28,815 nt of DNA from a virus. Lineage: Duplodnaviria; Heunggongvirae; Uroviricota; Caudoviricetes. Of the stretch, positions 1 through 9,088 are shown piece after piece (position 1 is the stretch's first letter; the number at the start of each line of letters is the position of its first letter). The translations under genes and the position numbers were made by a program. Location of the stretch: positions 176,262 to 205,076 of the IMG/VR virus record IMGVR_UViG_3300033068_001142; one strand, written 5' to 3'. Below the pieces are notes generated by a model. The model was not told where the DNA came from and made no database searches. It saw nothing but the letters and a program-made list of their open reading frames with translations.

Positions 1-621
1 AGTGTATTTCTTGAAGGCTACTGATGGAACGTGTGAATACTCGATCTCGTGCCATTGTCCTGCACACATTTTAGTCTCAACTACATTAGTTTTTTTAGCG
101 ACTAATCTTCTGATTTCTCCAATAGGAGTTTCAGTGTATTTAGCAAAGTCCTTATGGAATTGAGATTGTCTTGGGAACCATTTAGCACATAGACCATTAG
201 ATGCTAATAGTTGTATTCTAACTAATTCTAAGATTAAAGCATCAAGAACTTGGTTTTTACCATATAATTGGTAAACATCTTTCCATGAACCGATTTCTGG
301 AATGTATGGTAATAATTTATAATAACCAGCCATGAAGTCATCGTATGATGATAATTTTTCTAAGATAACTTTGTTAAGGATTCTTAATGAATCTTTGTTA
401 CCTTGTCCTCCCCTACAGTCTCTTAAGTAGAAAGCTACTTTGATAGCTTCAACTGGGTTTGAAACTAGTGCTCTAATGATTAGTTCTTCTTTTTTAGCTA
501 AGTCACAAGATACGCCCATTGAGAATAAATCTAATGAGGCGTTTAATGATGACTTGTTAGATATAGCACCATTAGCTGTTGTTGTTATGTTTAGTAATGA
601 TTTGATGAAAGAAGTTTCCAT
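1..621 (-). CDS. DUF2828-family (Ro60/TROVE-related) protein, 5' part; runs off the left edge; absent from ORF track
   Basis: Manual translation is open for 207 codons: METSFIKSLLNITTTANGA...LDLF...YLRDCRGGQG...IPEIGSWKD...CAKWFPR...VVETKMCAGQWHEIEYSHVPSVAFKKY, matching DUF2828 motifs in order. RBS AAAAGGA upstream. Confidence 0.88.
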   Translation of the reverse strand, partial: METSFIKSLLNITTTANGAISNKSSLNASLDLFSMGVSCDLAKKEELIIRALVSNPVEAIKVAFYLRDCRGGQGNKDSLRILNKVILEKLSSYDDFMAGYYKLLPYIPEIGSWKDVYQLYGKNQVLDALILELVRIQLLASNGLCAKWFPRQSQFHKDFAKYTETPIGEIRRLVAKKTNVVETKMCAGQWHEIEYSHVPSVAFKKYT

Positions 622-651: not shown

Positions 652-770
652 GTCTATTACACTGCTGGTAACTCGATCTTGTGCAGGATTTGAACCTGCT
701 ATGTTTGAATATAAGTCAAAGTTTTTACCAATTAAGTTAGTGCTGGGGAGTTACCAACAGTATAATAGAC
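652..770 (-). ncRNA. CAGCA-motif RNA 1: long terminal helix enclosing a tRNA-like D/anticodon/T module (loop CU-UAU-AU)
   Basis: GTCTATTATACTGTTGGTAACTC pairs with GAGTTACCAGCAGTGTAATAGAC; CAGCAC follows; TTTGA-CTTATAT-TCAAA arm; GCAGG-TTCAAAT-CCTGC T arm; no proper acceptor stem. Confidence 0.7.
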
Positions 771-838
771 AGGATGCGTTTTAAGTTAACTTGCAAAGTT
801 TTGGCTGCAAAATAATTAAAGGTTGCTGTAAGCATCCT
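771..838 (-). ncRNA. CAGCA-motif RNA 2 with Ala(UGC)-like anticodon loop
   Basis: AGGATGC/GCATCCT helix, TACAGCAA, internal AAC-TTTGCAA-GTT. Confidence 0.65.
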
Positions 839-859
839 AGTAGTGGTGTTACTACTTTA

Positions 860-922
860 CAGAGAACTTATTGTGATTTTATCTTAAAAGGATAGTCATA
901 ATAGGGTGCTGATAGTTCTCTG
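860..922 (-). ncRNA. CAGCA-motif RNA 3 with Lys(UUU) anticodon stem-loop
   Basis: CAGAGAACT/AGTTCTCTG helix (extends imperfectly to about 843-940), ATCAGCAC, internal TATC-CTTTTAA-GATA. Confidence 0.7.
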
Positions 923-1024
923 GAAAATAGTAGAATCCACCGCATCGATATTGAGGACTTTTACCCCAAGTTGTACATACTGCTCAGTACGGCGACACAG
1001 TACTTGTTTTCTTTAAACGTTTAA

Positions 1025-1100
1025 TTCTTCTTGAGCGAATGGATTTGAATCATTCATAGTACTGTACTAGTACTACTGCGCCCTGCTCTAAATCAAGAAG
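1025..1100 (-). ncRNA. Degenerate tRNA-like hairpin element
   Basis: TTCTTGA/TCAAGAA closing stem, TAGTAC/GTACTA hairpin, T-arm-like AATGA-TTCAAAT-CCATT. Confidence 0.4.
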
Positions 1101-1116
1101 GAGTATTACTACTCAA

Positions 1117-1248
1117 CAGAAAACATTTGTGCCTGATTAGGATTCGAACCTTATCTCTTGGTTAACAACCAAGTGTAATAACCAGTTATACTAGTAGCTC
1201 CAGGACTTAATGGAGAGCTTTAATTGTATGGATTGCTGATGTTATCTG
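1117..1248 (-). ncRNA. CAGCA-motif RNA 4 containing a tRNA-Asn(GUU)-like module
   Basis: CAGATAACAT/ATGTTTTCTG helix, CAGCAA, D arm TAGTATAACTGGTTATTAC, CTTGG-TTGTTAA-CCAAG, AGG-TTCGAAT-CCT; acceptor stem disrupted. Confidence 0.7.
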
Positions 1249-1262
1249 GGTAATACTTATGA

Positions 1263-1566
1263 TAGTAATAGTGTGTTGTTACACCAAATCGTGTTGAGGG
1301 TCTTGTATAGCATCACAGATATTCTAATCCCGTTACATTCTCTGTTTACCTAAGGGCTGTCATCCTTCGGCTTTTAAGGATAAAGTTTTCATATGCTTTA
1401 ACCTATTATTCTTTGTTTGACGGCTACGCCCGATTCAAACACTATACAAACTGTACTTGTCCTTCCCCTGTTATCTGATACCACCTAAATGCTGGGACCG
1501 CTATAGGACTGGATAACTCCGAACTCTTTAAAAGATGGCTACTTCTAAGCCTACTTCCTATTACTA
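1263..1566 (-). ncRNA. 23S rRNA H43/H44 (L11-binding) mimic with about 240-nt structured insertion
   Basis: GGAAGTAGGCTTAGAAGTAGCCATCTTTTAAAGAGT (1558-1523) and GTGTAACAACACACT (1284-1270) resemble 23S GGAUGUUGGCUUAGAAGCAGCCAUC-UUUAAAGA..GCGUAAUAGCUCACU; closed by TAGTAATAG/CTATTACTA. Confidence 0.7.
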
Positions 1567-1571
1567 CTCAA

Positions 1572-1636
1572 CAGACAGCTCTTGGATGGTTCAAAATTAA
1601 AAGTTTTGTCATTGTTAAGTGTGCTGAGGCTGTCTG
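1572..1636 (-). ncRNA. CAGCA-motif RNA 5 with Lys(UUU) anticodon stem-loop
   Basis: CAGACAGC/GCTGTCTG helix (extends to about 1561-1649), CTCAGCAC, perfect CAAAA-CTTTTAA-TTTTG. Confidence 0.7.
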
Positions 1637-1658
1637 ATGAATAGTATTAAGGAAGAAA

Positions 1659-1966: not shown

Positions 1967-2935
1967 TTAGTCCTGCTTTGAAAGTTTAGATGTGATTATA
2001 GCGATAACAATGAATGATAAACCTAATCCACCTACGATTAATTCGTTTACTTCTGTAAACATCTTCATGAACATGATGAAAGCTAATGCTCCGATGGCAT
2101 AGTGTGCTCCGTGTTCTAAGTATTTGAACTTAGTAAGTGTTCCTTCTTCAACTAAGTGAATAGTGATAGATCTTACGTACATAGCTCCAACACCTAATCC
2201 AACCATGATGATGAATATGTCTGAAGATAATGCGAATGCTCCGATTACTCCGTCGAAAGAGAATGAAGCATCAAGAACTTCTAAGTAAAGGAATCCGATA
2301 AGTCCAGATTTAACTCCGTCAGATGAGAATGCATCATCTAAGCTGTTAAGGATAGCGAATAGGATGATTCCTGAGAAGTATGCGATAGCAATAGTAGCTG
2401 AGTTAGTTAAATGAACTAAGTAAAGTCCTGCGATTGAAGCTAAGATTAAGCTAATTGATGGGATTTGACATAAAGCTAGTGTAAGTTTGTTAGCTTCAAG
2501 AGGTTTAATCCAATGGTGTTCTCGTTCTTCATCAAAGAAGAAAGATAAGAATACCATTAATAGGAATGACCCACCAAATGCAAAGATTGTGTGTTCGTTA
2601 GCTTCTAAAGCGTGATGATAAGCTTGAGGGTTTGTTAAAGCCATTGATCCAGCGTCGTACATAGAGATGCCTGCGGCAATAGATACAATTAGAATTGGGA
2701 ATAGTAATCTCATACCGAATACGGCGATAGGAATACCCCAGATGATGAATCGTTTTCTCCATTTTTCGTCCATAGTCCCAAGGACCTTGGCATTAACGAC
2801 GGCGTTATCGAATGAAACTGAAACTTCTAATGCACATAACATTAGGATTGTTAATAGAGCTGCATAACTTCCGTAGAAGAACGCCCATACTACCGCAGCG
2901 ACAAGTAGTATATGCGATAGTAAGTAGTGTCTCAT
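1967..2935 (-). CDS. DUF475 / TerC-like integral membrane protein
   Basis: LEVSVSFDNAVVNA, FLYLEVLDASFSFDGVIGAFA and YLEHGAHYAIG motifs; multiple TM helices. Confidence 0.92.
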   Translation of the reverse strand: MRHYLLSHILLVAAVVWAFFYGSYAALLTILMLCALEVSVSFDNAVVNAKVLGTMDEKWRKRFIIWGIPIAVFGMRLLFPILIVSIAAGISMYDAGSMALTNPQAYHHALEANEHTIFAFGGSFLLMVFLSFFFDEEREHHWIKPLEANKLTLALCQIPSISLILASIAGLYLVHLTNSATIAIAYFSGIILFAILNSLDDAFSSDGVKSGLIGFLYLEVLDASFSFDGVIGAFALSSDIFIIMVGLGVGAMYVRSITIHLVEEGTLTKFKYLEHGAHYAIGALAFIMFMKMFTEVNELIVGGLGLSFIVIAIITSKLSKQD

Positions 2936-3540
2936 TATTTGTACTTAGCTACGATTTCTTGTAAGTTCCCTGTTAAGGCATTACCTAACGCTTTGAACTT
3001 CCAAGTACCTTCGTATCTGTAGAATTGACATACTTCAACTGCTGTTGCTGCTGAGAAGTCTTCAACTAAATCATATTTACCTAATACTTCACCAGTAGTT
3101 TTGTTGTACATTCTAGCTTTACATGATGGAACTTGACCGAAGTTTTGGTTTCTGTCTTTTGCTTCATGAATGTTGATGATGATGTTGATTTTAGATACGT
3201 TAGCTGGAACTGAGTTTAATGATACAGTTAATGTTTCGTCATCCCCTGAACCTTTCCCAGTTAAGTTATCACCTGAGTGATGAATTGAACCATCTTTAGA
3301 TTTGAATGGTGCACCACCTGCTGGTGCTAAACCGTAGTATACTGCTCCATCTGCAACTAATTTACCATCTGCATCTAACATAACTGCCATTGAGTCTGCA
3401 TCAAATGAGTTTGCTCCTGGAATTTCATCCCAAGCTAATCCAACTGATGCTTCAGTTAGTCCTTCAGAGATTGCTTTTTCTAATGAGATGTTAACACCCT
3501 TAGTTAATACTATTGTGTTTGATGTTTCTTGAATTGACAT
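2935..3540 (-). CDS. terD: TerD-family stress protein (main start likely 3540; in-frame upstream ATG at 3639)
   Basis: VGLAWD, DADSMA, HSGDNLTGKGSGDDE, QNFGQV, FYRYEGTWKFKALG; AGGA RBS before MSIQET. Confidence 0.9.
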   Translation of the reverse strand: MSIQETSNTIVLTKGVNISLEKAISEGLTEASVGLAWDEIPGANSFDADSMAVMLDADGKLVADGAVYYGLAPAGGAPFKSKDGSIHHSGDNLTGKGSGDDETLTVSLNSVPANVSKINIIINIHEAKDRNQNFGQVPSCKARMYNKTTGEVLGKYDLVEDFSAATAVEVCQFYRYEGTWKFKALGNALTGNLQEIVAKYK

Positions 3541-3642
3541 TGTGTTTATCCTGTTTTCTAAATTTATTAATGTATTATTAATAGTGGTTGAAGCTATATT
3601 AGCTACGCCTGTGGCAATCCTACCTAATCTGTCAAGCATCGA

Positions 3643-4041: not shown

Positions 4042-4229
4042 TGTTTGTCCTTGATGGTGTAAAATTGAGTATCTAACTCTCAAATAAAATATAGGGTATC
4101 CATTAAAGAATTAGAAAACACCCATCATCCTACCGATGGGTGTAATCCTTGAAAGGAGAAAAAATGAAAAAATGTTAATGTAATTAACGGATGAGGTTTA
4201 CATCAGACCTTTGGATTAAATCCGTAGAG

Positions 4230-4319
4230 CTTAAGCTCTGCAGAGTACATGTGTTTGCTTGTAAAATACCAATTATTTTTGCGTTTATGATTTGCTGTAT
4301 GTACTCTGAAGAGGTTAAG
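4230..4319 (-). ncRNA. CAGCA-motif RNA 6 (possible Val UAC-like loop)
   Basis: CTTAACCTCTTCAGAGTACAT / ATGTACTCTGCAGAGCTTAAG helix, ACAGCAAA; internal TTTACAA with weak stem. Confidence 0.62.
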
Positions 4320-4339
4320 GGTGGGCTGGTTAGGCCCGG

Positions 4340-4464
4340 TGTCAAGGGAGAGATTCGAACTCTCTTCGTTTCGTTGCAATAAAAATTTAGAGTAGATTGC
4401 TGTCTGTATCTAAAACCATACTAGATCCTGCTGTACCCGTTATTACCATATTCGGCTCTTGACA
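4340..4464 (-). ncRNA. tRNA-shaped RNA 7: acceptor, D and T arms, with the anticodon region replaced by a CAGCA-containing insert
   Basis: TGTCAAG/CTTGACA, GCCGAATATGGTAATAACGG, GAGAG-TTCGAAT-CTCTC; insert contains TACAGCAG and GACAGCAA. Confidence 0.6.
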
Positions 4465-4472
4465 TTTGAGAA

Positions 4473-4577
4473 TGGCGCCGTCCCCACGAATTACACGTGA
4501 TCTTATTCATCGACATTGAAAATTGTATGATTAAGGTTTGCTGTGAATATCAATCTAGATATTGGTATTCGGACGGC
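4473..4577 (-). ncRNA. tRNA-shaped RNA 8 with CCA end enclosing a CAGCA module (Glu UUC-like loop)
   Basis: GCCGTCC/GGACGGC-G-CCA acceptor, T-arm-like CACG-TGTAATT-CGTG, inner TATTCA/TGAATA helix followed by CAGCAAA, ACA-ATTTTCAA-TGT. Confidence 0.62.
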
Positions 4578-4596
4578 ATATAAAAGTGAGAAAAAT

Positions 4597-4674
4597 TGGT
4601 TGCGGGAGTGGGATTTGAACCACACGACATCGAGATTATGAGCCTCGCAAGCTACCGGACTGCTACATCCCGCA
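4597..4674 (-). tRNA. tRNA-Met (CAT), fMet-like D arm
   Basis: TGCGGGA/TCCCGCA-ACCA, GTAGCAGTCCGGTAGCT, CGAGG-CTCATAA-TCTCG, TTCAAAT loop (one extra base in T stem). Confidence 0.88.
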
Positions 4675-4842
4675 ATTAGTAGTGCAGATAAGAAAGGATA
4701 ACACCTGCACTACCGGAAAAAACACATATGAAAAAAACAAAATGTTGACATAGAGTTCTATGTCTACTCTCTTTGAAGGGTGAGCTAGTTTTCAGATATC
4801 CCTTGTTAAGTAGGCCAGTCACGAACTGGCTGACGTCTAGAG

Positions 4843-5412: not shown

Positions 5413-5714
5413 TACTTGTCCTCAATGATGTAACCCATGTTTGAATGGATTTTCTTGTTAGAAGAACCTAACCAAACTGAGATTGTTTCTCCGTTTGATG
5501 ATACTTCATATCTAAGATCTCTATCTGAGTAAGATGAGATTAGAGTTCCTGTCATAGGAGAATAGAATGTTACAGTTCTGTTTGAACCAACTAAGTCTGC
5601 TTTGAAGTCGTATACTTTCTTTTGAACTACTTCAACATTGAAAAACGTAATAAATCCAGCTAGAATTACTAACAGGATTGTTACAAATATTAATTTTGCT
5701 TTAAATGTAAACAT
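5412..5714 (-). CDS. Hypothetical membrane-anchored protein
   Basis: N-terminal TM; TAATG coupling. Confidence 0.75.
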   Translation of the reverse strand: MFTFKAKLIFVTILLVILAGFITFFNVEVVQKKVYDFKADLVGSNRTVTFYSPMTGTLISSYSDRDLRYEVSSNGETISVWLGSSNKKIHSNMGYIIEDK

Positions 5715-6556
5715 TATTTAACCTTTAAGATATTGTTAGCTTGTTTCATGATGATGTTAGCTAAGTCTTCCATTTGTTCTTCAGATAATGAATTAGGATC
5801 TGCGATAACTAATGTATCAGTACAGATTGTGTCTAAAGTTTGGTTGAATAGACCTTTTGTTAATTCGATGTTTTCGAATGTGTATACTGCTTTCCCGTTA
5901 GGAAGTTTGTTGTTTAAGTCCCAATCCTTGATAGGTAGGAATGTTAATTGACTGTTAGCTGCTAGTACATCTAAAACTAATGAATTATCGGTGCTTGGAG
6001 TTTGCATTTGAAGAACTGCATCGTATTTGTCATCAGAGTTTGATAATAATTTACTCATAGCTAATGCGTCACCTTTCTCAAAAGTCATAGCTTTAGCAAA
6101 TCCAGGTTCTAAGATGCTCATGTATTTCCATGTAGCGTTTGATCCTGCCCCTTCTTTTCCGATAGCAATTCTAACTGACTCTTTTTGTAAGTCTTGATCA
6201 GATTTGATTTTACCAGTCTTAGATACTGTAGTATATAAGCATCCCTTACCAAGAGAGCCGATAATTTCAAGTTTCTTAACGTCAGGGTTTTTCTTCATAC
6301 TGTAAGCATAAGCATCAGCAAATGTTAAAGCTACGTTAGCTTTCCCTGATAATACGTTTTCGATGTTTTCTAATGATCCTTTTGAAGGGATAACTTCAAC
6401 TTTGTCTCTTGAAGGCATAAGTTGTTTGATGTTCATACCCATTGGGTAATACGATTTGTCTTTAGCTCCTGTTGAGATAATCATAGGAGTATCTGCAGCA
6501 AATGCTTGTAATGATAGTGCTGCTGCGATTGCAGCTGCTAATAATGATTTTTTCAT
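5714..6556 (-). CDS. TAXI-family TRAP transporter solute-binding protein (start 6556, MKKSLL)
   Basis: Signal peptide; ISTG...YY, SKGSLENI, IAIGKEGAGS motifs. Confidence 0.8.
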   Translation of the reverse strand: MKKSLLAAAIAAALSLQAFAADTPMIISTGAKDKSYYPMGMNIKQLMPSRDKVEVIPSKGSLENIENVLSGKANVALTFADAYAYSMKKNPDVKKLEIIGSLGKGCLYTTVSKTGKIKSDQDLQKESVRIAIGKEGAGSNATWKYMSILEPGFAKAMTFEKGDALAMSKLLSNSDDKYDAVLQMQTPSTDNSLVLDVLAANSQLTFLPIKDWDLNNKLPNGKAVYTFENIELTKGLFNQTLDTICTDTLVIADPNSLSEEQMEDLANIIMKQANNILKVK

Positions 6557-6566
6557 TGTGTTTTCC

Positions 6567-6995
6567 TTATTTTGTTTTGTCACATACAATAATATATGAT
6601 AATAATACTCTGTACCAAGGTTGTTTAATACCTTCGAATTTATATTCTAAGTCTCTTGATTTCCATCTAATAGATTCTCTAATTTCGTGGAATATGCCAT
6701 AAAGAGTTATAAAGGCTACAGTTCCTAATATTGACCATATCCATAACATTTGTGCTCCATTAAGAGAACATTTTATTAGGTAGTCTCTTAAAGTTTCATA
6801 AAATACAGTTGATTTTTCTGGCATCAAATATGCAGCTAGTTCATACATATCGAATGTTATTATTAAAAAATAGATAATACTAGCTATAAAGGAAGTAATA
6901 ATTACAAATACAGTAATAGCTACTACAAAGCATAATATTATCATAAGTATAGTTTTAATTCCTGCTAGTAAGTCTGGGTTTATTCTACATTTCAT
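6567..6995 (-). CDS. Hypothetical membrane protein
   Basis: Hydrophobic segments; ATGA overlap with thyX. Confidence 0.65.
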   Translation of the reverse strand: MKCRINPDLLAGIKTILMIILCFVVAITVFVIITSFIASIIYFLIITFDMYELAAYLMPEKSTVFYETLRDYLIKCSLNGAQMLWIWSILGTVAFITLYGIFHEIRESIRWKSRDLEYKFEGIKQPWYRVLLSYIIVCDKTK

Positions 6996-7918
6996 GAGAT
7001 TAATTCCTTCATAGCTGTTGCTACTTCTCTGATTTCACGTTGGGCGTGTGAATCGAGTCTGAGCGAAAAGAAATTAGCTAAGTAAGATGGTTGGAATGCT
7101 CCCCAAATTTGGCTGTAAGCAGCTTGAGGGATAATTCGTCTTGCTTCTTCAGGCTTAACACCTTGAGCTAGTGCGGCTTGGTAGTGATCTAAGCATATAT
7201 CGATTATATTTTGAGTATTTAAATGTATGCTATAATCTTCAGCATAATCTTCTCCACCAAATACTGAAGTAACAGATTTCATCTTATCAGAGATATAGAA
7301 TTCAAATGGAACTTTAGATCCTGATACGTATCTTCGAGATAGTTCTTGCCAAGATGTTCTGTGTCTAACCATTTGAGAACGAGTTGGTAAATCGACTTTG
7401 AAGTTGAATACTTTGAAATGTTTTTCGATAATCTTACATTCGTCTTCAGTGTTGTAGATGTTAAGGTAAGTATCCTTAAGAGCTTTTTGTTTGTCCTCAG
7501 GTAATCGAGTTAGGTTGAAGTACTTAAGAACTACGTCTTCGTAATCAAATAACAGAGCTCGATAGTTTGTAAGGAAGTATGGTTTTCCATTCTCATAGAT
7601 TGTCTCACCGAATTTTCGGATATTAGATTCTTTAGCAACTAAAAGAGTTCTATGACTAGTATTAGTTTCATCTAATAAGATTGGAACGAATTCAAATGAT
7701 GACGACGGAAGACCTGCTGATTCAGCTGCTAAACGGTTGTAAAGAGATTCAGAACCGAAAGCTTTAGGGTTTGCATAACATACTGAAGCGATGTTTGTAA
7801 TAGCTTCGATACGAGATTGCATATTCATGTTTGCGTAAGCAAACTGAGGGTAGTATTCAACAAAACCGATTTGGTCGTTGTTAATGCTGATTTGTTTGAT
7901 AGGTTGGAATTTATCCAT
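6992..7918 (-). CDS. thyX: FAD-dependent thymidylate synthase
   Basis: QMVRHRTSWQELSRRY (RHRx7SxR), EEARRIIP, LRLDSHAQREIREVA. Confidence 0.93.
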   Translation of the reverse strand: MDKFQPIKQISINNDQIGFVEYYPQFAYANMNMQSRIEAITNIASVCYANPKAFGSESLYNRLAAESAGLPSSSFEFVPILLDETNTSHRTLLVAKESNIRKFGETIYENGKPYFLTNYRALLFDYEDVVLKYFNLTRLPEDKQKALKDTYLNIYNTEDECKIIEKHFKVFNFKVDLPTRSQMVRHRTSWQELSRRYVSGSKVPFEFYISDKMKSVTSVFGGEDYAEDYSIHLNTQNIIDICLDHYQAALAQGVKPEEARRIIPQAAYSQIWGAFQPSYLANFFSLRLDSHAQREIREVATAMKELIS

Positions 7919-8146
7919 TTAAGACTCCTTAATTAAATTTGATTACAATACATATAATTTCTATTAGTGCGTCGATATAATTCTACGACTACAATCCATC
8001 CGGCGCAATGCCTAAGATCAGTAGTATATATTAACTTTACGTCTTTTATCCTAATTTTCATTATATGTTTGTTTATTAACCGTGTTACTCGGTTTTAGTT
8101 TAAATATGTGTGTATATTTCCTATAATGTTAATACGGCCTATGAAA

Positions 8147-8218
8147 GTCAATAGTAGGGGACGATCCTACATTTACCGGCTCAGTTGCCGGGATCCTAAC
8201 CAGTTAGATGATATTGCT
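8147..8218 (-). ncRNA. Pseudo-tRNA (6-nt anticodon loop, atypical T loop)
   Basis: CAATA/TATTG, ATCT-AACTGGTT-AGGAT, CCGGC-AACTGA-GCCGG, GTAGG-ATCGTCC-CCTAC. Confidence 0.55.
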
Positions 8219-8387
8219 AACATAGTGTGTATTAATATTATTCTTGTATACTCAGCACAACTATCTAAAGATAGGTGTTTGGTTCGTCAGAGCATCTAAA
8301 GATAGCTGGACTGAATATAGAAGGGTGAGTCATAACGGAGACTCAGCCGAACGAAAAAACTTGTTTGATTGTTGTAGTTCCTAAAGT

Positions 8388-8472
8388 GTGCACAATGAGG
8401 GAGTCGAACCCTGCATTTCCTACGGAGCGACCGTGGTGTCCTACCCTTAGACGATTTTCATACGAGTTGCAC
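8388..8472 (-). ncRNA. Pseudo-tRNA (Glu/Asp-type D arm, intact T arm, displaced acceptor)
   Basis: CGTCTAAGGGTAGGAC, ACGG-TCGCT-CCGT, AGGG-TTCGACT-CCCT, GTGCA/TGCAC. Confidence 0.55.
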
Positions 8473-8486
8473 GTAATTTCCATGCT

Positions 8487-8722
8487 TACAGTTCCTAACC
8501 GCTAGAAGACATCAGCATAAAGTATATAGACCTTACAGAGTTTTGTAAAGTCTATTGGTTGTATGTGTTTCAGGAATTCCACCTGAATAAGTACCTTTCT
8601 TGTGCTGATGGTTGGATTTGAACCAACATCTATATAATAGAAAAGGTCAGCCAATGCACTTGACTACTGGACACTCCAGCTTCCGCAAACCTCTACACTC
8701 CTAGTGCATCTTTCTATCAGCA
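8487..8722 (-). ncRNA. tRNA-like RNA with T arm and acceptor; possible permuted (T-acceptor-D) fold
   Basis: GTTGG-TTCAAAT-CCAAC-CATCAGC can pair with upstream GCTGATA or downstream GCTGATG plus D arm TTCT-AGCGGTT-AGGA. Confidence 0.55.
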
Positions 8723-9088
8723 TAAACCTCAGATACTGCTGAGGTGCCATTCGACGACCGAGTTTAAAGGACATTCGCTTTCGCTAACTCTTTGACCTTA
8801 GTATACCTTAATTACTGATAGTGTAATCAGTAGTTTATTTTACCTAATCTATCAGTATAGGTTTTTCCTGTTATATTTGTTTGTAGCAGGACTCTTTTCT
8901 TTATTCTCTTGTTAAACCAGTTTTTGGTATCTAACCCATAAAAACTATCGTAAGGAATTACATATTCGTTTGATGATTTATATTTTTTAAGAGCTTTTTG
9001 TTTGATTGTGTTTAACTCTTCAGGTGAAGGGGTTAATGAATAGGATTGTGAATAATGTTGCTTGAATTGATGATATAATCATTTGTTA

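Follow-up and report, generated by a model that had tools for sequence, protein, structure and literature searches.

The locus and its features

The window (the whole stretch of 28,815 nucleotides that was analysed) forms the end of a 205-kb virus record, which has terminase and virion genes. An array of five stem-closed RNA units marked by the motif CAGCA lies directly upstream of a DUF2828/DUF7788 gene and on the same (minus) strand, and the genes flanking the array are all on the minus strand as well. No credible gene lies in the region 650-1650, which stops some 30 nt short of the DUF2828 start codon at 621. The features are as follows.

1..621, minus strand: 5' part of the DUF2828/DUF7788 gene (Pfam); 483 aa, running past the window edge
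652..770, minus strand: CAGCA unit 4; 23-bp closing stem, CAGCA at 745-741, tRNA body at 737-683; fold z -7.8
773..840, minus strand: CAGCA unit 3b; short stem and CUUACAGCAA box resembling dictyostelid Class I RNA
850..932, minus strand: CAGCA unit 3; closing stem, CAGCA at 911-907, free Lys stem-loop at 894-880 (loop 890-884); fold z -5.6
1112..1250, minus strand: CAGCA unit 2; closing stem, CAGCA at 1238-1234, D-anticodon-T body at 1193-1138; fold z -1.8
1265..1565, minus strand: split mimic of the 23S rRNA GTPase-associated centre; a separate inserted RNA of about 300 nt
1559..1649, minus strand: CAGCA unit 1; closing stem of about 17 bp, CAGCA at 1626-1622, A/C-rich linker, free Lys stem-loop; fold z -5.1
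1592..1608, minus strand: free Lys UUU stem-loop of unit 1 (CAAAA, CUUUUAA, UUUUG), with a weak all-A-U stem
4230..4319, minus strand: further CAGCA unit, upstream and close to tRNA-Met (4598-4675)

Downstream of the DUF2828 gene, outside the window (L588, 1012-8255, minus strand), are NADAR, NAPRTase-family, PRPP synthetase and AAA_33 kinase-like genes, and the same stretch holds a gene for an RNA ligase with a PHA02142 OB fold and a cytidylyltransferase-like gene; together they are an NAD-salvage and RNA-repair cluster. Upstream of the array (1967-3546 and 5714-7918, minus strand) are terD, terC-like, TAXI/NMT1-like binding protein and ThyX genes. A non-coding stretch at 7930-8810 (minus strand) contains several tRNA-like pieces, namely T-arms and acceptor-like ends around long inserts, for which neither ARAGORN nor Rfam made a call. 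Additional CAGCA sites were seen at 4225-4600 (minus strand) near tRNA-Met, with a strong closing stem only at 4319-4230, and a search of that unit for an anticodon stem-loop found none. Between units 2 and 3 (935-1100, minus strand) there is a structured stretch with several hairpins and without CAGCA, which is retained with many changes in a contig of run X7 and is absent in the relative L001 described below.

The five units of the array share a common plan, in which a stem joins the two ends, CAGCA lies 1-4 nt past the 5' strand of that stem, and the interior is a variable insert. The motif GNCGAA is absent from the 5' strand of the CAGCA units, its sole occurrence in 625-1660 being at 1371, inside the insert of the rRNA mimic. 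A promoter scan was uninformative (7 sites vs 4.7 expected). The array is partly covered by contigs of runs recorded as RNA (X5 and X8), but contigs carry no strand, ends or level and these may derive from DNA.

Anticodon loops of the array

An earlier note on this DNA described free anticodon stem-loops of Lys UUU (twice), Ala UGC and Asn GUU in the CAGCA RNAs, with weaker UAU, UAC and UUC loops in other copies and with no chargeable acceptor stem on any of them. Reading all loops on the minus strand, we recovered both Lys loops: CU-UUU-AA at 890-884 is closed by a UAUC/GAUA stem with pair probabilities of 0.89-0.93, and that at 1603-1597 by a 5-bp CAAAA/UUUUG stem in the minimum-energy fold, whose pair probabilities are only 0.29-0.37. 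The CUUUUAA of both units is identical to the E. coli lysT loop, E. coli serving here as a reference. Units 1 and 3 have no D-loop. The Asn loop UU-GUU-AA at 1168-1162 is also present, on a 5-bp stem with a probability of about 1.0 and in a folding model that pairs its outer loop bases too, but it is not free, being the anticodon arm of the D-anticodon-T tRNA body of unit 2 (1138-1193; 34.4 bits, above the Rfam tRNA cut-off). Likewise, the UAU loop exists as CU-UAU-AU at 715-709, where it is the Ile UAU anticodon arm of the tRNA body of unit 4 (683-737; 29.6 bits, above the same cut-off) and not a free hairpin.

The remaining loops did not withstand folding. The 3-bp stem of the Ala UU-UGC-AA at 797-791 has a probability of 0.0, its bases being paired in another helix, and in relatives' contigs from two runs positions 795 and 796 are altered so that U33 is lost; the nearest candidates for the UAC loop (4265-4259) and the UUC loop (4522-4516) each have a 1-bp stem. 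The lack of a chargeable acceptor stem was borne out. Rfam alignments of the unit 2 and 4 bodies span tRNA model positions 8/9-63 only and omit this stem, a 7-bp acceptor stem with NCCA is absent in both bodies, and ARAGORN calls no unit.

We compared the array (625-1660) with 400 dinucleotide shuffles, a check that the earlier note had put forward for its hairpins. YU-NNN-AA loops on stems of at least 4 bp were found 3 times against a mean of 0.2 (0/400 shuffles), and CUUUUAA was found twice (0/400). The looser pattern YU-NNN-R-H on 3-bp stems, with 5 against 2.5 and a match in 47/400 shuffles, was not significant.

An rRNA mimic within the array

Positions 1559-1525 are 31/35 identical to nt 1054-1088 of E. 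coli 23S rRNA (E 2e-7, word size 7, against rRNA) and make up the 5' half of the element 1565-1265, which has an insert of about 240 nt and two ends able to pair. BLAST of 1440-1570 against E. coli genomes at word size 11 gave no match, and a DNA search of five genomes gave chance matches only. By a pattern scan of viral contigs, 119 such stretches were found, none with an rRNA match of at least 150 nt in the DNA examined; among those with long flanks, a tRNA was nearby in 60/80 and DUF2828 in 3. No Rfam match was obtained in 20 scanned mimic loci. The mimic was also seen in L072, L112, L138, L251 and L469-L587 and is widespread in phage tRNA regions, while it is missing from L001, and in runs X5 and X24 a 1250-1562 joint bypasses it. 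The possibility that it is cargo of the CAGCA units was rejected because only 3/119 matches occur with DUF2828 in the DNA examined; the mimic belongs to a family of its own that has been inserted here. Positions 1523-1560 show a very high depth, which is due to host 23S rRNA contigs, not to mimic RNA.

Anticodon turnover among close relatives

One comparison was provided by L001, whose protein is 92% identical to the DUF2828 protein of the window. Its unit 1 is kept and near-identical, its unit 2 body carries Ile GAU instead of Asn GUU, its unit 4 body is placed within the unit 3 stem and carries an Arg UCU loop, and its last unit has a Thr GGU-like hairpin. In public sequencing runs, the wobble base of unit 3 is replaced in contigs of X1 (depth 2.1) and X8 (depth 10.9), which makes the anticodon Asn GUU, unit 2 has Ile GAU or Ser GCU as read from 30-letter loose ends of single contigs, and contig joints show units deleted or reordered. 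The same slot thus switches between Lys and Asn (unit 3) and among Asn, Ile and Ser (unit 2), and U33, U36 and A37 are kept in all anticodon variants of these relatives. The unit plan is thus conserved, but not the anticodon that a particular slot holds.

The DUF2828/DUF7788 protein

The DUF2828 protein is predicted to adopt a Ro60-like ring fold composed of helical repeats and a vWA domain. An AlphaFold2 model (pLDDT 91, from a 68-sequence alignment) was searched with Foldseek, and all 13 matches with E<=0.001 were Ro60/Rsr, the best being 1yvr (E 3e-9, TM 0.58, 14% identity); identity to Ro60 structures was 11-15%. By sequence, a TROVE domain was not recognised in the protein, Pfam giving DUF2828 and DUF7788 only, and phmmer at E<=1 gave zero matches in the PDB. 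The protein was matched in 710/50,697 phage records, laboratory E. coli phages included, and some of the 710 are annotated 'Ro-like RNA binding protein'.

Taken together, 142 dereplicated loci have 274 CAGCA motifs within the 500 nt that precede the gene, vs 28 antisense. These counts demonstrate the linkage of array and gene, and the DUF2828 protein is the likely binder of the CAGCA stem. In Ro60-Yrl1/2 of the Thermus phage phiLo, a stem and a CGAA motif are reported to bind the ring (PMC12135203), and by likeness to this arrangement we infer that the handle made of closing stem and CAGCA box may bind the ring here.

Survey of DUF2828 loci

We dereplicated 457 loci to 255 and called 531 units in 205 of them, or 482 once similar inserts were removed. 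The unit caller was permissive, passing in a trial 73% of CAGCA sites and 41% of random positions at this stem score, and because it admits false units the signal is diluted. Nine units overlapping called tRNAs were removed, and a loop was taken as real when its 7 nt were identical to a loop found at least twice among 653 independent tRNA calls. Real-loop hairpins were present in 46/417 units (11%) without T-arm and without tRNA overlap, compared with 2 in the reverse complement, 1 in the reversed sequence, 3.2 after within-loop permutation (maximum 10 in 1000) and 28/3973 in flank windows. No real-tRNA loop was found in the other 371 T-arm-less units (89%).

The stems of these hairpins vary while their loops are kept. 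Twelve CUUUUAA loops stand on 12 different stems, none of them equal to any of the 18 tRNA-Lys stems called in these loci, and the free stem differed from that of the same-anticodon tRNA of the locus in 11/14 comparisons, the other three being identical to the tRNA's own arm. In a gut-phage family, 22/23 distinct units have Asn, Ser GCU or Lys loops (15, 6 and 1, the single Lys loop having one extra base); 2/5 pairs of their stems covary (C-G to U-A and A-U to G-C) and all 276 cells are paired, a covariation that may represent one event in related sequences. G37 goes with G36 in real tRNAs, and in the loops G37 accompanies G36 in 9/14 (shuffles 1.1/5.0). Some units show drift in the loop (A32, G32, U38, A34). 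The conservation in homologous arrays that the reading of the earlier note requires applies to loops, which persist on changing stems, but not to the anticodons slot by slot.

The anticodon spectrum was compared after collapsing protein clusters at 60% identity, which left 41 loops, of 17 anticodon types, against 394 tRNA genes of the same loci. UUU accounted for 8/41 loops vs 14/394 tRNA genes (p 4e-4), and the N-U-U anticodons of Lys and Asn (UUU, GUU and CUU) for 16/41 vs 43/394 (p 1e-5). A/T richness does not explain the UUU excess, because among the A/U-only anticodons UUU occurred 15 times and UAU and UAA 2 times each, vs 20, 20 and 27 in tRNA genes. Glu UUC, Gln UUG and Thr UGU together made up 1/41 vs 42/394 (p 0.10), and an excess of Tyr GUA was not significant (p 0.18). 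An apparent deficit of Met CAU (2/92 vs 62/666) was gone after cluster collapse (2/41 vs 26/394). Within loops of the form CU-NNN-A[AC], A stands at position 34 in 8/60 vs 18/419 in tRNA genes, which suggests that position 34 is partly free and not tuned to one target, and U36 is found in 37/60 vs 181/419. A count of 72/10/4 was not used as a frequency, since its pattern covered four loop types only and some contigs were duplicated.

Altogether 666 tRNA calls were made in the 255 loci, and phage tRNA clusters surround many of them. Three loci with DUF2828 and loop-bearing units (L197, L209 and L218) lie on contigs labelled Chloroflexi or Ruminiclostridium, where no phage marker was found among the scanned neighbours; the neighbours on these three contigs are glycoside hydrolase, HNH, sigma, WYL and ADP-ribosylglycohydrolase genes. 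The array is downstream of the DUF2828 gene in L003 and L004. A YrlA-like order (T-arm, hairpin, D-arm) was found in 13/482 units (L003, L004, L075, L098, L129 and others).

Comparison with known RNA systems

The locus resembles the Ro60/Rsr-Y RNA system in its ring-type vWA protein (here predicted), in nearby RNAs on the same strand with a closing stem and a short motif, and in the tRNA-like second module of these RNAs. It differs in the motif (CAGCA here, GNCGAA/CGAA there), in the protein (DUF2828/DUF7788 without TROVE signature), and in having several units per locus with exchangeable cargo. Whereas YrlA keeps the D, T and acceptor arms without the anticodon loop, the units of the window keep the anticodon loop without the acceptor end, so that the CAGCA units are a design complementary to YrlA. 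No Rfam match to YrlA was obtained in the window or in 16 related loci, the window units being D-anticodon-T bodies or bare loops, and tRNA was the only Rfam family above cut-off in this set. YrlA is reported not to be cut by the anticodon nuclease (PMC7790460).

Class I RNAs of dictyostelids are described as short-stemmed RNAs in which an 11-nt box accompanies a variable interior, and are called unique to dictyostelids (Kjellin 2021, PMC7919456). The CAGCA units are like them in the short end-joining stem, the box beside the 5' strand (CUUACAGCAA in unit 3b), the variable interior and the many copies. Positions 770-837 (minus strand) scored 22.7 bits against RF01414 (E 0.17, below the 41.5 cut-off), with the 11-nt box and the stem aligned, and the CUUACAGCAA box is common in units of the family. 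Unlike the predicted ring protein, the partner of Class I RNA is the RRM protein Rnp1A, and the available text mentions no anticodon cargo (PMC7919456).

Phage rescue tRNAs and repair enzymes (T5 tRNA-Lys vs PARIS; T4 Pnk/Rnl1 vs PrrC) are phage answers to tRNA-cutting defence that centre on tRNA-Lys(UUU), as the CAGCA RNAs would be, and non-productive complexes of viral tRNAs with effectors are mentioned (PMC12409363). Rescue tRNAs, however, are chargeable and resist cutting, whereas the CAGCA RNAs are unchargeable and have a sensitive host-type loop. In the available portion of a jumbo-phage review, ROT/TROVE proteins are noted in some phages and such RNAs are not described (PMC7824862). Searches of openly accessible literature turned up no account of CAGCA RNAs, DUF2828-RNA pairs or bare anticodon loops serving as phage decoys.

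Possible readers of the loops

The free loops are non-chargeable, selected mimics of the anticodon loop, carried on a conserved handle that is linked to a predicted Ro60-like protein. Given the excess of loops, the variation of stems around kept loops, the Lys/Asn bias and the same-slot switches, it is likely that some anticodon-loop-reading protein selects these RNAs. Of the decoy idea in the earlier note, what stands is that these are non-chargeable, selected and host-like mimics with Lys UUU as the commonest, and the further step to a nuclease as their reader is conditional. We tentatively prefer this step, in which the reader would be a decoyed defence nuclease and the array RNAs bait tying up tRNA-attacking enzymes, without rating it quite as high as an even chance. 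It is preferred because the loops are of the sensitive host type, centred on Lys and swapped among real anticodons, and because a bare 17-nt stem-loop is a PrrC substrate.

In the proposed mechanism, the closing stem and CAGCA box would dock on the neighbouring, predicted Ro60-like protein, and the exchangeable insert would present a host-like anticodon loop without an acceptor end. The loop would serve as bait for tRNA-attacking enzymes, most plausibly PrrC-type anticodon nucleases reading Lys/Asn (N-U-U) loops, and cut bait might be resealed by the nearby RNA ligase of the phage. This supposes that the array is transcribed, that the RNAs bind the protein, that the ring protects them and that they compete with host tRNA.

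Both PrrC and AriB target tRNA-Lys (PMC3014915, PMC12409363), as the earlier note had stated. PrrC is reported to cut a bare 17-nt anticodon stem-loop and to be hindered by a stable stem (PMC3014915), so the A-U-rich stems of the window suit it; the wobble modification is also strongly preferred, cleavage falling sharply without it, and determinants outside the arm are used (PMC3014915). The targets of AriB include Lys and Asn, but AriB requires the D-loop and further contacts, the E. coli stem-loop alone having failed to restore cleavage of the T5 tRNA (PMC12409363). The proposed link to AriB is therefore weak for units 1 and 3, whose bare loops come without a D-loop, and bare loops fit PrrC-type enzymes better. 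The targets favoured by Cas13a are Lys together with Glu UUC, Gln UUG and Thr UGU (PMC11042736), classes of which Lys alone is enriched among the loops. Rescue tRNAs such as T5 tRNA-Lys have changes that confer resistance to cutting (PMC12409363); since bait should match the host target whereas rescue tRNAs are altered, the host-type loop counts for bait. In addition, Hughes 2020 put forward competitive inhibition of an anticodon nuclease as a possible role of YrlA (PMC7790460).

Several observations count against bait. Units with a real loop are a minority cargo (46/417), a cleavable bait would compete poorly with abundant host tRNA unless tightly bound, and loop-bearing units also occur on the bacterial contigs without phage markers (L197, L209, L218). 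The N-U-U bias is equally compatible with lysyl- and asparaginyl-tRNA synthetases or with enzymes that modify U36-A37. In its widest form, the bait reading would describe a second Ro-type particle in phages and some bacteria, a swappable library of anticodon-bait RNAs directed against tRNA-cutting immunity, with possible resealing by ligase and a handle related to Class I RNAs; this whole we hold to be doubtful. Bacterial immunity commonly ends in the cutting of tRNA, to which resistant tRNAs and repair enzymes are the phage answers described in the papers cited here, and a non-coding bait on a Ro60-like ring would, if true, be a third route. It would also bear directly on whether Y RNAs act as inhibitors of anticodon nucleases, as has been suggested. 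Should the bait reading fail, a selected bare loop on a widespread, uncharacterised RNA-protein pair still points to a reader that can be found.

A close rival, in itself unlikely, is that the loop is an address label that brings a tRNA-binding enzyme to the Ro60-like ring as YrlA brings PNPase to Rsr, the loops then being handles and not bait; the enzyme could be a repair RNA ligase or kinase, a decay nuclease, a modification enzyme or a Lys/Asn synthetase. Tethering by Y RNA is an established role of the Ro60 class (PMC4201824, PMC12135203) and agrees with the Ro60 fold predicted for the DUF2828 protein, with the 13 units in YrlA-like T-then-D order, with the adjoining repair genes, with the units on bacterial contigs and with the enrichment of U36 loops (37/60 vs 181/419). 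If the partner were fixed, however, the module should be fixed too. Close relatives instead exchange anticodons and entire inserts, and 17 anticodon types are seen among 41 loops.

We consider it improbable that the RNAs act as a tripwire, with cutting of the loop by a host anticodon nuclease freeing or switching on the Ro60-like protein or de-repressing the downstream repair and NAD-salvage genes. Y RNAs are reported to gate access to the Ro60 cavity (PMC4201824), the rsr-yrlBA-rtcBA operon is switched on by tRNA halves (PMC7790460), and here the array, with its cleavable host-like loops, immediately precedes the gene and shares its strand; against this, no regulator was identified and the array is downstream of the gene in L003 and L004. 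Loop readers other than those discussed here share a similarly small probability.

That the loops are functionless relics, pieces of decaying tRNA genes that recombination brought into Y-like RNAs where tRNAs are plentiful, is already disfavoured and is highly improbable. The tRNA clusters around many loci (666 calls in 255 loci), the tRNA bodies of units 2 and 4 as intermediates, the 371/417 T-arm-less units without a real loop and the drift of some loops accord with decay, but loops stay exact while stems change, the anticodon spectrum is unlike that of neighbouring tRNA genes, and the free stem is unlike the same-anticodon tRNA stem in 11/14 cases. Least probable of all, at a very low level, is that the loops and the uL11 site of the rRNA mimic are presented to ribosomes or their factors and so direct translation or the stringent response during infection: the 23S GTPase-centre mimic does lie within this array and A/T-rich phage genes would be rich in Lys and Asn codons, but the mimic is an independent family (only 3/119 matches with DUF2828) that close relatives lack, and a ribosomal tRNA site would scarcely accommodate a loop attached to a 50-kDa ring.

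Related RNA arrangements

In several of the 13 YrlA-ordered units, an anticodon stem-loop precedes the T-arm. Over-long Rfam tRNA matches were observed at L318 2228-2345, L389 2149-2262, L372 2205-2321, L102 4675-4790 and L088 4570-4684. In L318, L389 and L372, a CAGCA stem replaces the anticodon arm while the D, T and acceptor arms are kept, the inverse of the window units. Upstream of DUF2828 in L003 (4200-5900) and L004 (4200-5950), the short motif AATCAGACTTTTAT is found many times between small genes.
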